Shown: positions 45,108-64,000, counted from the first letter of the stretch. The stretch is DNA of 64,000 bases from an uncultured Clostridia bacterium (GCA_947623285.1 CANQGP010000002.1:64773-128772), one strand, 5' to 3'. The notes: a model not told the origin generated them from the sequence alone. Program-made: numbers and translations.

Positions 45108-47558
45108 CTATTCTTCCATTTCTGGTGTTAATGTTTCGATGCTTACTACTTTTCCTCCATCAGATGTTCTCATTAATGTTACTCCTTGTGTTGATCTTCC
45201 TAATACACTTATGTCTTTTACATGAAGTCTTATTATCGTTCCTGTATCTGTTATTAACATTACATCATCTTCTTCTGTTGATATTCTTACTCCTACAAGA
45301 TTTCCTGTTTTTGGTGTTATTTTATATGTTGTTACTCCTCTTCCTCCTCGTAGTTGTACTCTATATTCATCTAATTCTGTTCTTTTTCCAAATCCATTTT
45401 CTGTTATTGCTAGTAATGTTGCTTTTCCTCCTGGTATTATTGATTCCATTCCTATAACTTCGTCTTCATCATCTATTCTTATTCCAATTACTCCTTGTGC
45501 TACTCTTCCCATTGGTCGTACATCTTTCTCATCGAATGTTATGCTCATTCCTTTTCTTGTTACTAATACCACATTATCTTCACCATCTGTTAATCTTACT
45601 TGGATTAGTTCGTCGTTTTCTTTTAATGTTATTCCTTGCAATCCTGTTTTTCTAGCTGAGTTATATTCTGATAATGCTGTTTTCTTAATCAAACCGTTTT
45701 TTGTAGCCATTAATAAGTATTTTCCTTCTGCAAAATTTTGAATTGGTATTACTGCGGATATTTTTTCTCCTGGGTCTAAACTTAATAGATTTACAATTGC
45801 TGTTCCTCTTGCTGTTCTTCCTGCTTCTGGTATTTCATATCCTCTTAGTTTATATAGTTTTCCTTTATTTGTAAAGAATAGTATTGTGTCATGTGTTGAG
45901 GTTGTAAATATTTGTTTTACAAAGTCATTTTCTCGTGTTGCTATTCCAGTAATTCCTTTTCCACCTCTTCTTTGACTTCTATATGTATCTATTGGCATCC
46001 TTTTGATGTATCCAAAGTGTGTTAAAGCTACTACGCATTGCTCTTCTTTTATTAAGTCATCTATGTCAATTTCGCCTTCTGCTGCTACTATTTTTGTTTT
46101 TCTTTCATCTCCAAATTTATCTCTTATTTCTATTAATTCTTCTTTTATTATTCCATATACTAATGTTTCACTATTTAGTATATCTTTTAAATGTGCTATT
46201 AATTCTAATAATGATTTATATTCATCTTCTATTTTTTCACGTTGCAATCCTGATAATGTTCTTAATCTCATATCCAAAATTGCTTGCGCTTGGATTTCTG
46301 ATAATCCAAATCTTTCCATTAATCTTTCTTTCGCATCATCATATGAATTTCTTATTATTTCTATTACTTCATCTATATTATCTAATGCTATTTTTAATCC
46401 TTCTAAGATATGAGCTCTTGCTAATGCTTTATCTAATTCAAATTGTGTTCTTCTTAAAATTACATCTTTTCTGTGATCTATATATACCTCTAAGCATTGT
46501 CTTAATGTTAGAATTTTGGGTTCTCCTTTTACTAATGCTAACATTATTATTCCAAATGTATCTTGCATTTGCGTATGCTTAAATAGTCTATTTAATACAA
46601 CTTGTGCATTTGCATCTTTCTTTAATTCTATTACTATTCTTACTCTATCATTTCTATCTGATTCGTCTCTTACTTCTGATATTCCTTCTACTCTTTTTTC
46701 TCTTGTTAATTTTGCAATATTTTCTATTAATTTAGATTTATTTACTTGATATGGTAATGATTTAACTATTATTCTTTGTCTATTATTATTCATTTCTTCT
46801 ATTTCAGTTTCTGCTCTTAATGTTATTTTTCCTCTTCCTGTTGTATATGCTTTTTTTATTCCTTCTATTCCTAGAATTACACCCTCTGTAGGGAAATCTG
46901 GTCCTTTAATCACTTCCATTAATTGTTCATCTGTTACATCATCTTCATCTATTATTTTTATAATTCCATTTATTACTTCTGTTAGATTGTGTGGCGGTAT
47001 ATTTGTTGCCATTCCTACGGCAATTCCTGATGAACCGTTTACTAACAATGCTGGTATTTTTGCTGGCAATACTGTTGGTTCTTGCAATCTATCATCATAG
47101 TTTGGCATAAAATCTACAGTATTTTTTTCTATATCTGTCAACATATGCTCTGCTATTTTTGCCATTCTTGCTTCTGTATACCTCATTGCTGCTGCTCCAT
47201 CACCATCTATTGAGCCAAAATTTCCATGTCCGTCTATTAACATATATCTCATTGAAAAATCTTGAGCCATTCTTACCATTGCATCATAAACAGAACTATC
47301 TCCATGTGGATGGTATCTTCCTAAAACTGATCCTACTGTATTAGCACATTTTCTATATGGCTTGTCTGATGTTATTCCATCTTCATGCATTGCATATAAT
47401 ATTCTTCTATGTACAGGTTTTAATCCATCTCTTGCATCTGGTAAAGCTCTTGAAACAATAACACTCATTGCATAATCAATATAAGCTGTTCTCATTTCTT
47501 TTTCAATGTCTCTTTCTATTATTTTTCCATCGCGTCTCTCAGGTGGTGTTTCTTGCAT
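45108..47558 (-). CDS. gyrA: DNA gyrase subunit A
   Basis: 816 aa. It has the N-terminal catalytic-Tyr region, the QRRGGKG-box region and C-terminal beta-pinwheel repeats. Confidence 0.95.
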   Translation of the reverse strand: MQETPPERRDGKIIERDIEKEMRTAYIDYAMSVIVSRALPDARDGLKPVHRRILYAMHEDGITSDKPYRKCANTVGSVLGRYHPHGDSSVYDAMVRMAQDFSMRYMLIDGHGNFGSIDGDGAAAMRYTEARMAKIAEHMLTDIEKNTVDFMPNYDDRLQEPTVLPAKIPALLVNGSSGIAVGMATNIPPHNLTEVINGIIKIIDEDDVTDEQLMEVIKGPDFPTEGVILGIEGIKKAYTTGRGKITLRAETEIEEMNNNRQRIIVKSLPYQVNKSKLIENIAKLTREKRVEGISEVRDESDRNDRVRIVIELKKDANAQVVLNRLFKHTQMQDTFGIIMLALVKGEPKILTLRQCLEVYIDHRKDVILRRTQFELDKALARAHILEGLKIALDNIDEVIEIIRNSYDDAKERLMERFGLSEIQAQAILDMRLRTLSGLQREKIEDEYKSLLELIAHLKDILNSETLVYGIIKEELIEIRDKFGDERKTKIVAAEGEIDIDDLIKEEQCVVALTHFGYIKRMPIDTYRSQRRGGKGITGIATRENDFVKQIFTTSTHDTILFFTNKGKLYKLRGYEIPEAGRTARGTAIVNLLSLDPGEKISAVIPIQNFAEGKYLLMATKNGLIKKTALSEYNSARKTGLQGITLKENDELIQVRLTDGEDNVVLVTRKGMSITFDEKDVRPMGRVAQGVIGIRIDDEDEVIGMESIIPGGKATLLAITENGFGKRTELDEYRVQLRGGRGVTTYKITPKTGNLVGVRISTEEDDVMLITDTGTIIRLHVKDISVLGRSTQGVTLMRTSDGGKVVSIETLTPEMEE

Positions 47559-47686
47559 TTGTTTTTCCTTCTTTCTCTTGAATTTTATACATTTGTATTA
47601 TACTAAAATAGAGATTTTTTTGCAAGTAAATTTAAGTAAAATTTCTGCTTTTTTAGGGAAATAATAGCTTTCAGCTCTTTTTGTTT

Positions 47687-48454
47687 TTACAAACTTTCTA
47701 TTAGCTCTAATTGATTTTTATTTATATTAAAGTTTTGTCCATTATTTTTAATTAATGTGTGTAGATTCTCTACTGCTCGAGCTTCTTTTACAATTTTTTC
47801 AATCGGAGCTAAATCCTTTAATTCTTTTTCTATTTTGCTATACGTTTTTTCCATTTTTTCAAAATCTTTATTATTATAATTGTTTTTCCATTCTGAAATG
47901 TATTTAGATAAATTTATTTCTTTTTTATTTTGTTTTTCAAATGTTTTTTCAATATTGCTTTCCACATTATTTAATATAATTTCTTTTCCATTAGATAATA
48001 AACTTGCAACATTTTTATCTATTTTTCCTTTACTATTTGCTTTATCTATTGCAAAATCTAAAGCTGAAGAAATTCCATCTATTAATCCTCCCTGTTTTAC
48101 AGCTTCTTTCATTTGATTTGTATTTTCAAAATTTCCTGTTAATATACCTATTGCACTTTTTCCTAAATCTATTGTATCGTTTATCGTTTCTTTTATTCCA
48201 TCTTTCAAACCATAATTTAATAAATTATCTTTTATATTTATAACTTGATCTTCAATAAAATCTGGTAATAAAGCTCTTATTCCAATATCTAATGCACCAT
48301 TTATTGCTTTTCCTAAAATTGAATTTAAAAAATTAGATTGTTCTTTTCCTATTTCATTATTTTTTTTATTTTTTATCTCTAAATTTTCATTAATTATATT
48401 TTCTATTTTTTTACACTCCTTTTTTATTTTTTTATTTAAAAATAATTTTTTCAT
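47687..48454 (-). CDS. Hypothetical protein (Lys/Asn-rich, possibly secreted/lipoprotein-like)
   Basis: 255 aa. It lies in the AT-rich island. Its 5' end and upstream region are tandemly triplicated (48438-48655). Confidence 0.35.
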   Translation of the reverse strand: MKKLFLNKKIKKECKKIENIINENLEIKNKKNNEIGKEQSNFLNSILGKAINGALDIGIRALLPDFIEDQVINIKDNLLNYGLKDGIKETINDTIDLGKSAIGILTGNFENTNQMKEAVKQGGLIDGISSALDFAIDKANSKGKIDKNVASLLSNGKEIILNNVESNIEKTFEKQNKKEINLSKYISEWKNNYNNKDFEKMEKTYSKIEKELKDLAPIEKIVKEARAVENLHTLIKNNGQNFNINKNQLELIESL

Positions 48455-63575: not shown

Positions 63576-63789
63576 TATAAATACGTAAACACGTTATGTT
63601 TCTGGAATGAAATAGTAAAGAAAAAACAAAACTGTAAAAATGTTCTACACAGGAATCGTCCCGTGAAACATGCAATAAATCAAGCAAAATTAACAACAGG
63701 GGCGAACAAAAAAAGTTGAGGAACATTTTGCAAAGCAAACCCAAAAAACGTAGTTTTAGAAGATAAAAAAAGGGAGGAGAAAACAAAAA

Positions 63790-64000
63790 ATGAAAACATA
63801 CTTAGCGGGGGAATACGACATAGCAGTCGTAGGCGCTGGCCACGCAGGATGCGAGGCAGCGCTAGCGGCTGCGCGCATGGGTATGAAAACCCTAATATTC
63901 TCAATCAGCCTAGAGGCAATTGCAAACATGCCATGTAACCCACACATAGGCGGAAGCTCAAAAGGGCACCTAGTCAGAGAAATAGACGCCCTAGGCGGAG
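63790..64000 (+). CDS. mnmG: tRNA uridine 5-carboxymethylaminomethyl modification enzyme MnmG (GidA), 5' partial
   Basis: Encodes [37 protein letters not shown]. An AGGGAGGAG ribosome-binding site is present. Local GC is about 50%, far above the surroundings. Confidence 0.85.

Follow-up and report, generated by a model that had tools for sequence, protein, structure and literature searches.

Where do the replication forks part in a genome whose strand bias does not reverse at its predicted origin? This question is raised by a 64,000-nucleotide stretch of DNA from an uncultured Clostridia bacterium (GCA_947623285.1, CANQGP010000002.1:64773-128772; hereafter the window, with positions counted from its first letter), which has a G+C content of about 29% and carries the dnaA-dnaN-recF-gyrB operon, a predicted replication origin (oriC) and gyrA. 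The best DnaA matches in a set of species-representative genomes are only 73–75% identical, and belong to metagenome-assembled genomes of uncultured Clostridia. Within the window the composition of the two strands switches between gyrB and gyrA, at about 49–53 kb, and not at the DnaA boxes. On balance, this switch is best read as a boundary between two replication arms, with the polarity of an origin, that is shown up by an exceptional mutational asymmetry specific to this species.

The switch is visible in the window-wide composition and, more clearly, gene by gene. In sliding 2-kb windows the GC skew of the plus strand lies between +0.1 and +0.4 up to about 45 kb and between -0.25 and -0.55 at 45–60 kb, and its AT skew between -0.1 and -0.55 on the left and between +0.1 and +0.53 on the right. 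Since coding strands here are purine-rich, the effects of gene strand and of domain were separated by means of third codon positions (GC3 and AT3 skews). At 3.7–45 kb all genes, on either strand, show a plus-strand GC3 skew of +0.25 to +0.84 and an AT3 skew of -0.25 to -0.84; at 53.4–63.6 kb the values for all genes are -0.34 to -0.94 and +0.73 to +0.93, respectively. Pooled over third positions, G+T on the plus strand amounts to 0.777 in the left interval, where it exceeds 0.5 in 24 of 24 genes, and to 0.095 in the right, where it stays below 0.15 in 10 of 10 (Fisher p ~0 for left versus right). The third positions of dnaA comprise 11 A, 10 C, 128 G and 302 T, and those of mnmE 322 A, 66 C, 14 G and 35 T. 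The sign of the skew changes irrespective of gene orientation, in coding and non-coding DNA alike. No sign change occurs at the dnaA/rpmH divergence point (59.3 kb) or in the dnaA-dnaN spacer (57.6 kb), and the plus strand of both these non-coding spacers is likewise A+C-rich.

A first-pass annotation of this DNA, made by eye, had already placed the switch between gyrB and gyrA and noted its absence at the DnaA boxes, and the per-gene third-position skews and the spacers bear this out. Its base counts were also close, the coding strand of gyrB having about 28% G and 10% C and that of mnmE about 54% A, and it was right that the two gyrase genes have opposite skews: the coding AT3 skew is +0.52 in gyrA and -0.74 to -0.93 in the dnaA-operon block that includes gyrB. 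Its description of the gyrA coding strand as rich in A and C is accurate for A, which makes up 0.67 of third positions, and fails for C (0.05; G is 0.07).

Three compositional segments can be distinguished. The left domain (3300..50300) has a T(+G)-rich plus strand and an A(+C)-rich minus strand whatever the gene orientation, with a keto skew of +0.1 to +0.47, and the right domain (53387..64000) has an A(+C)-rich plus strand over gyrB, recF, dnaN, dnaA and rpmH to mnmE. Between the two lies a transition zone (47560..53390), graded on its left side and reaching saturation abruptly at the gyrB 3' end. The gradient is best followed as plus-strand A/(A+T) at 4-fold degenerate sites, which is 0.07–0.15 from the traG-like gene to dnaI, 0.16 in the 5' half of gyrA, 0.29 in the gene for a 255-aa protein (h255), 0.38 in that for a 331-aa protein (h331), 0.44 and 0.70 in the two parts of a VirB4-like gene (VirB4c and VirB4n), 0.70 in a TraC-like gene of 157 codons, and 0.95–1.00 from gyrB onward. 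The sign changes within the zone at about 51–52.9 kb: non-coding AT skew is -0.23 at 51,991–52,194 and +0.49 at 52,885–52,973, and the keto skew is close to zero across 50.3–53.3 kb. In place of the switch point of about 53 kb given earlier there is a graded zone of about 47.5–53.4 kb.

The locus was traced by exact-protein look-ups in ENA metagenome and Logan assemblies, and a walk along longer contigs of the same species covered -18.5 kb to +90.5 kb in window coordinates. The left polarity extends to at least -18.5 kb (plus-strand third-position keto skew of +0.35 to +0.50 in locus L188), and the right polarity stays strong as far as 77.5 kb, then weakens without changing sign up to 90.5 kb (extension contigs L086, L179 and L183). 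On the left a coherent polarity is maintained for at least 68 kb and on the right for at least 37 kb, with no second switch anywhere along the walk. Its amplitude is patchy at a scale of 3–10 kb, being highest at 25.9–36.4 kb and 53.4–77.5 kb and at baseline at -6.6 to +3.3, 47.7–51.3 and 77.5–90.5 kb. Transcription can be ruled out as the driver, as both gene orientations share the polarity of their domain and rpmH is A-rich, and so can an artefact of the bisulfite type, given that A is also depleted, the bias is specific to codon position, the proteins are conserved and many samples agree.

The composition of the bias tells which base is being lost. At 4-fold sites the coding strand of the dnaA operon has 82.5% T, 11.6% G, 2.4% A and 3.5% C, and that of the rpmH-mnmE block 90.6% A, 3.8% C, 2.4% G and 3.2% T; G+C at such sites is only 6–15%. 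Among codons of the NNR type, G/(A+G) is 0.84 on the T-rich strand versus 0.03 on the A-rich strand, and among NNY codons C/(C+T) is 0.04 versus 0.76. The direction of substitution was measured against L002, the closest relative with baseline composition, using only codons for an identical amino acid. In genes on the T-rich strand, A had become G at 363 sites and T at 282 and was kept at 77; at 4-fold sites alone, A had become T at 216 and G at 28 and was kept at 9. The mirror image is seen in genes of the A-rich strand (T to A 88, T to C 90, T kept 33). The T-rich strand is not depleted of C, so the primary process is a strand-specific loss of A (equivalent to loss of T on the partner strand) and not cytosine deamination; nor is G converted to T there. 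The GC skew is largely a by-product of avoiding A in NNR codons and T in NNY codons under synonymous constraint. In left-domain spacers it is weak and inconsistent (-0.08 to +0.38), and the AT skew there is mostly -0.3 to -0.5. Since the GC skew comes mainly from two-fold sites, an excess of G over C is an unsafe guide to the leading strand in this genome.

The relatives provide a calibration. The gene order mnmE, jag, yidC, rnpA, (rpmH) / dnaA, dnaN, recF, gyrB, TraC-like, VirB4-like, (h331), h255, gyrA / dnaI, dnaB-like, h95, h292 is identical, orientation included, in at least 15 related species, and there is no breakpoint at the switch. The relatives have an ordinary, mild skew switch at dnaA. 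Where their gene order is identical, genes transcribed in the direction of the forks that leave oriC have a coding AT3 skew of +0.07 to +0.26 (A3>T3), and the head-on genes dnaI, dnaB-like, h95 and h292 one of -0.12 to -0.45 (T3>A3); pooled over 11 loci of relatives the values are +0.21 and -0.10. In L150, in L153/L157 (metagenome contigs OGZO01000008.1 and ERZ827528.18) and in the sister species L189 the AT3 skew is about 0.3 and independent of orientation, with A on the gene-rich strand, and in L153 C equals or exceeds G on that strand. In L150 and L153/L157 this moderate excess of A over T marks the leading strand on the dnaA side; the rpmH side of L153 is not mirrored, and L153 too is without a clean compositional switch at the unwinding element of oriC.

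Set against these relatives, the genome under study differs mainly in amplitude. The comparison set comprised about 85 gyrB loci, with GyrB up to 86–88% identical; third-position G+T of gyrB is 0.89 here versus 0.27–0.50 in the set, none of which reaches the amplitude of the target, which is about 3–5 times larger. In 12 strongly skewed flanking orthologues (rnpA, yidC, jag, mnmE, gyrA, dnaI, dnaB-like, h95 and h292, together with PcrA, M23 and A_deaminase genes, the last three compared with L189) the AT3 sign is that of the relatives, amplified 3–5-fold. In gyrA (45108..47558, minus strand; Pfam DNA_topoisoIV and DNA_gyraseA_C) the +0.52 compares with +0.19 in 22 relatives, the sign unchanged and amplified, with A at 0.84 of 4-fold sites. 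The dnaB-like gene, which has a DnaB_2 domain, and the helicase-loader gene dnaI (together 43049..45052, plus strand; PF07261 and PF01695/PF00308) are head-on to forks leaving oriC here and in all relatives, and have coding AT3 skews of -0.43 and -0.42 versus -0.12 and -0.14; with h95 and h292 the range in the target is -0.42 to -0.65. The A-rich block of rpmH, rnpA, yidD, yidC, jag and mnmE (59611..63575, plus strand; Pfam) has +0.80 to +0.94 versus +0.14 to +0.26. The genes between gyrB and gyrA stay near the baseline of the relatives, with the AT3 sign unchanged in h255, h331 and VirB4c. The sole block whose sign is flipped relative to its orthologues is that of dnaA (57898-59250), dnaN (56459-57577), recF (55305-56378) and gyrB (53387-55318), all on the minus strand and assigned by Pfam, with coding AT3 skews of -0.74 to -0.93 versus +0.06 to +0.16 in 54–85 relatives.

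In Firmicutes the leading strand carries more A than T, GC and TA skews are discordant, and the T>A half of the usual rule fails (PMC5291525, PMC8941118, PMC4070872). We infer that the A-rich strand is the leading strand in this species as well. By this rule of the clade the switch has the polarity of an origin, with forks diverging from 49–53 kb, and the A-rich strand points away from it on both sides. The same polarity fails the G>C rule, compromised as it is here, because the plus strand passes from G>C to C>G along the sequence. The first-pass annotation had called the polarity terminus-like, a verdict that depended on a leading strand with G>C and T>A, and it falls with the T>A half, which holds neither in Firmicutes nor in this clade.

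Gene orientation gives a mixed picture. Of about 69 genes, the A-rich strand carries roughly 46 and the T-rich strand roughly 23; to the right of the switch the numbers are 24 and 5, or 24 and 1 when the dnaA operon is set aside. Thus 24 of the 25 right-side genes outside that operon are oriented away from the switch, and these are 24 consecutive genes to the right of dnaA. Beyond mnmE and off the window they continue, A-rich on the plus strand, with mnmG, rsmG, parA, parB, a DUF4446 gene and a type IV secretion system (T4SS) cluster. The dnaA operon itself is oriented toward the switch, not away from it.

The proposed sequence of events is as follows. Forks would move as they do in the relatives, to the left through gyrA and all that lies past it, and to the right through rpmH, parB and the genes that follow. 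The asymmetry would deplete A on one strand (A to T, or A to G where only the transition is synonymous) and T on its complement. The dnaA-dnaN-recF-gyrB operon would long have been replicated head-on by the rightward fork, and the graded zone of a few kilobases could reflect stochastic placement of the first primer around the start site. If the bias tracks fork direction, as seems likely, initiation would effectively take place to the left of gyrB, with a long-term boundary at about 49–53 kb; the saturated lagging-type composition of the dnaA operon puts that boundary 4.7–8 kb to the left of the unwinding element. The position of the switch also favours an origin-type boundary, since the chance of a terminus falling this near to oriC is about 1%, assuming a genome of about 2 Mb; the switch is not opposite oriC, and the genes from rpmH to the T4SS cluster point away from it and do not converge on it. 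Of the explanations offered at first, a genuinely non-canonical replication organisation survives in a modest form only, as a replichore boundary some 5 kb from the DnaA-trio element.

That element belongs to a module in the dnaA-dnaN spacer (57592..57650, minus strand) made up of an AT-rich tract, a DnaA-trio-like array at 57611-57629 (TAGTAGTAATAGTATTAGG on the plus strand) and two tandem DnaA boxes at 57633-57650. Judged by its motifs, it is the predicted oriC unwinding element of Bacillus type. Further boxes of the GTGGAAAA type lie at 57.70–57.80 kb, and two perfect DnaA boxes (TTATCCACA) at 59275..59295 on the plus strand, just upstream of dnaA. In an alignment of the target with 14 relatives the box and trio columns are invariant, and the flanking spacer of the target has drifted to T and G; invariance amid drifted surroundings points to purifying selection on the module.

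Several observations weigh against an origin-type boundary at this place. The switch is 4.7–8 kb from the unwinding element and not coincident with it, no DnaA boxes occur within 47–53.4 kb, and the transition is graded over about 6 kb with no step. The displacement of about 5 kb is one for which no mechanism was found and which we could not explain. A lagging-type dnaA is to be expected, as the gene lies on the far side of the unwinding element; the same composition in dnaN, recF and gyrB is not, and is a residual anomaly. Equally unexpected is the AT-rich tract beyond gyrB, in which the gyrB strand is A-rich in relatives and T-rich here. The division of genes between the strands in the left domain is weak (about 22:18), and the T-rich strand keeps a residual excess of G over C of 0.3–0.5 at 4-fold sites. 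We know of no described pattern with an A+C-rich leading strand. Changes of A to G and C to T are the classic damage of single-stranded DNA, and A to T could follow adenine loss; in classical theory such damage falls on the lagging-strand template, which has the sequence of the leading strand. This damage argument is tempered, however, by the observation that C is not depleted on the T-rich strand and G has not been turned into T. Finally, in most bacteria, and in Borrelia, Treponema and Chlamydia with their strand-specific codon usage (PMC2089121), it is the leading strand on which G goes together with T.

In sum, three things about the locus are odd: the amplitude, the pairing of G with T in a Firmicute, and an operon of dnaA, dnaN, recF and gyrB with saturated 'lagging' composition. 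Models that start from the known element (delayed priming, a patch of DnaE synthesis, long single-strand exposure) were tried on the last of these and rejected, since they predict neutrality or a symmetric effect and not a one-sided, saturated flip; the model of initial DnaE synthesis used for comparison is that of PMC5737612. A bolder formulation can be offered only tentatively, as a possibility we would not lean on: that forks start about 5–8 kb from the DnaA-trio element, downstream of gyrB, in a box-free zone beside a putative structured RNA gene, and replicate the genome's own dnaA-dnaN-recF-gyrB operon head-on under a strand-specific replication or repair defect that turns A:T into T:A (and G:C), giving an A+C-rich leading strand; or else that the dnaA/oriC region is now a terminus.

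A true terminus of converging forks deserves to be weighed in its own right. The G+T-rich strand would then be leading, the functional origin would lie far from dnaA, and forks would meet at about 47.5–53.4 kb, with a polar barrier at the gyrB 3' end. The formal GC-skew and T>A polarity is indeed terminus-like, the combination of G with T is that of the leading strand in the majority of bacteria as well as in Borrelia and Chlamydia, and the changes on the T-rich strand (A to G, C to T, A to T) resemble damage to single-stranded DNA. A zone with one graded and one sharp edge is also what a one-sided fork barrier would be expected to leave, and no origin-type counter-switch is met within -18.5 to +90 kb. 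We nevertheless think this unlikely. It needs two simultaneous reversals, one of fork direction on both flanks and one of the A>T-leading rule, which together would leave 12 of 12 flanking AT3 signs unchanged. With forks converging here, about 24 conserved genes in a row (rpmH to the T4SS), and the majority of all genes, would be lagging-strand genes, at odds with the gene-strand bias seen in Bacillota, and a conserved and apparently selected DnaA-box/trio module would go unused. A zone of 6 kb would require a tight fork trap, and a meeting point within 8 kb of oriC would be the coincidence of about 1% already mentioned. Nor did a search for dif find anything above chance: the generic XerCD pattern had 17 matches versus 21 expected (the dif of this clade may differ), and the best match to the dif of B. 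subtilis, a sequence that may not be that of the clade, had 8 mismatches in 28, the same as local shuffles.

Coverage of the contigs gives little comfort to either an origin or a terminus gradient. In contig-level SPAdes k-mer coverages, which are not read depth along the sequence, contigs on the left have 11.2–11.9 and those on the right 10.25–11.0 in three samples, and the two are equal in a fourth. The deficit of 0–14% on the right is too large and asymmetric for a gradient of either kind, and probably reflects strain variability. These contig coverages do speak against a nearby origin with near-unidirectional replication, for which a step up to the right would be predicted.

Rather improbable, in our estimation, is an account in which the bias stems from some polar process that is not ordinary bidirectional replication starting at one site, or from a mosaic history, such as past changes in orientation or gene conversion of the dnaA operon, or segments of differing residence time, so that little about the forks of today could be read from where the switch lies. 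Such an account suits the patchy amplitude, the intact oriC module sitting within a domain of uniform polarity, and L153, which is moderately skewed and likewise has no clean switch at its unwinding element. It is hard to reconcile with a polarity that holds over at least 68 kb to the left and 37 kb to the right, in both gene orientations and in spacers, and with strains that differ by only 0–0.7% across the zone. The dnaA operon and its flanks share their closest relatives and the operon shows no sign of foreign origin; its orientation is ancestral, so that a history of inversion would take two events. We know of no other process that is polar, mutagenic and acts at the scale of domains.

The integrity of the assembly is well supported. 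From dnaN to a point at least 10 kb to the left of gyrA (about 35–57.5 kb), the sequence is contiguous in contigs from at least three samples, at 98.8–99.98% identity to the window; an ENA contig of 97.8 kb covers -2 to +96 kb, and one of 183,122 nt from NCBI includes DnaA together with genes at -9 and +78 kb and so spans the junction. A chimeric assembly joined within the AT-rich region, or relocation of the ori gene cluster by a large and recent rearrangement, both of which had been proposed at first, would suit a metagenomic source and the breaks of several assemblies at about 59.46 kb and 64.07 kb, but is very improbable given these independent assemblies across the junction, the conservation of the order from gyrB to the dnaB-like gene in at least 15 related species, and the position of the breaks, which fall in an A/C tract of low complexity and in a stretch where strains diverge by 2.6%, not at the switch. 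The idea that the 'AT-rich island' between gyrB and gyrA is a recent insertion can also be ruled out, on the grounds of its clade-wide gene set, its strain divergence and its identity to relatives.

Strain divergence is 0–0.7% across 39–57.5 kb, as it is elsewhere except for two hot spots, at 36000-38000 (up to 9%) and at 63000-64000 (2.6%); the latter accounts for the ends of several assemblies within mnmG, at about 64.07 kb. At the other break, one contig (L087, NODE_613 of ERZ27249389, abutting 59467) has at positions 1-33 a stretch of 33 nt, CTTTCAAAATGCATATGATATAATCGCATCATC, which replaces the poly-A/C tract upstream of rpmH and may be a strain variant or an artefact of the assembly end. 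An invertible dnaA cassette was considered and found no support, as these 33 nt have no match in the window and strain divergence is 0–0.7%.

If the switch is a boundary between replication arms, its nearest parallels are the PolC-type Firmicutes, in which the leading strand is A+G-rich (PMC5291525, PMC4070872, PMC8941118). As in these, the A-rich strand here is the gene-rich one, the AT3 sign of each orthologue is that of its relatives, and the bias is independent of gene orientation, which is also the case in several of the relatives. In contrast to them, 83–91% of 4-fold sites in the target carry one base, where a typical GC skew is about 2.5% (PMC8941118), G goes with T and not with A, and the boundary is 4.7–8 kb off the unwinding element. 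The bipartite layout of oriC, known from Bacillus subtilis and also mapped in Clostridioides difficile (PMC7561715), is conserved here, but the strand bias does not reverse at the unwinding element. In strength, the A/T strand asymmetry appears to be unprecedented.

Two strand-dependent codon usages, with G/T-ending and A/C-ending codons, are familiar from Borrelia burgdorferi, Treponema pallidum, Chlamydia and Lawsonia (PMC2089121, PMC2671203). In those genomes the G/T-rich strand is leading and the switch lies at the origin, whereas calibration by relatives points here to the A-rich strand as leading, and the driver here is an exchange of A and T and not the loss of cytosine. The amplitude here appears much larger than theirs, although this is an assessment and not a measured comparison. 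A lack of strand reversal where an origin is expected has been described in the order UBA1400 of the candidate phyla radiation, e.g., in Ch65, and the authors propose that origin and terminus are close together or that replication is unidirectional (PMC7143001). The disparity in Ch65 concerns G and C only, extends over the chromosome and has no AT trend, unlike that of the target, which is mainly one of A and T, with a clear reversal between a left domain of at least 68 kb and a right one of at least 37 kb. If replication were nearly unidirectional, as proposed for Ch65, a step in coverage would be predicted at the switch, and the contig coverages show none.

The asymmetry may be the strongest of any cellular genome and, if it truly goes with an A+C-rich leading strand, would be the inverse of the general bacterial rule. 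If 83–100% of 4-fold sites carry one base according to strand, such a genome holds a near-binary, base-resolution record of long-term fork direction, in which the sharpness of an origin, the width of the zone of continuous synthesis and the position of the boundary relative to the unwinding element can be asked about; ordinary skews of 2–5% do not allow this. The sharp contrast with relatives at 86–88% GyrB identity amounts to a natural experiment on the change in polymerase or repair behind the polar A:T to T:A and A:T to G:C substitutions. It also calls for caution, as the G>C and T>A rule applied blindly labels an origin-proximal boundary a terminus in this lineage.

Several features of the region around the switch merit separate mention. 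The conserved gene set between gyrB and gyrA (47687..52668, minus strand; PF26593, PF19044, PF12846) comprises the TraC-like gene (52195-52668), a VirB4/TraG-P-loop-like ATPase (50206-51841), h331 (49236-50231) and h255 (47687-48454). The ATPase is one open reading frame of about 560–610 aa in relatives, but is split into overlapping frames of 203 aa and 358 aa in all strains seen of the target, presumably through a frameshift or as a pseudogene. Directly downstream of gyrB, on the opposite strand, lies a conserved non-coding element of about 340–410 nt (52974-53313, plus strand), found also at L002:16295-16673, L108:11977-12384 and more than 30 other loci. RNAalifold predicts 126 pairs in it, 69 of them with compensatory changes, and the target is without one internal hairpin. 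The element had no Rfam match even at E<=1, and a permissive scan of 52.6–53.45 kb gave nothing credible; it looks like an undescribed structured RNA. At gathering score, Rfam finds five tRNAs in the whole window and nothing else.

The spacer of 780 bp between h255 and h331 (48455-49235) is 0–45 nt long in most relatives and 308 nt in L102. Three tandem AT-rich units of 72 nt (87% matches) occur at 48422-48632, and the rest of the spacer, where T strongly predominates on the plus strand, may derive from a coding sequence that has decayed. The repeat was considered as an iteron-like origin, a proposal not upheld, there being no Rep gene and the flanking spacer being already of the left type.

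On the far right, after parB and the DUF4446 gene, a second, complete T4SS-like cluster lies at the window equivalent of 71.7–89.7 kb (L179/L183). Its components are three TrbC/pilin genes and genes for a TraC-like protein of 404 aa, a VirB4-like protein of 650 aa, a protein of 1076 aa and an M23/lysozyme hydrolase of 1630 aa. The cluster is a paralogue of the short TraC-like/VirB4-like pair that lies between gyrB and gyrA, and its distal half (77.5–90.5 kb) has near-baseline composition. At the other end, a segment of about 10 kb with baseline composition (positions 1-3650 and some 6.6 kb further left in L093/L188) abuts a tRNA-Arg gene (3574-3650) and encodes an AbiEi/AbiEii toxin-antitoxin pair, a CPBP protease, a cupin, a leucine-rich repeat protein and an amylase. 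The segment has the look of an island acquired not long ago, and one assembly has a break within the tRNA. Finally, the plus strand at 12497-20110 carries a gene for a 2537-aa, two-module nonribosomal peptide synthetase with a terminal reductase, followed by one for a histidine kinase with seven transmembrane segments, in what is a small, low-GC Clostridia genome.

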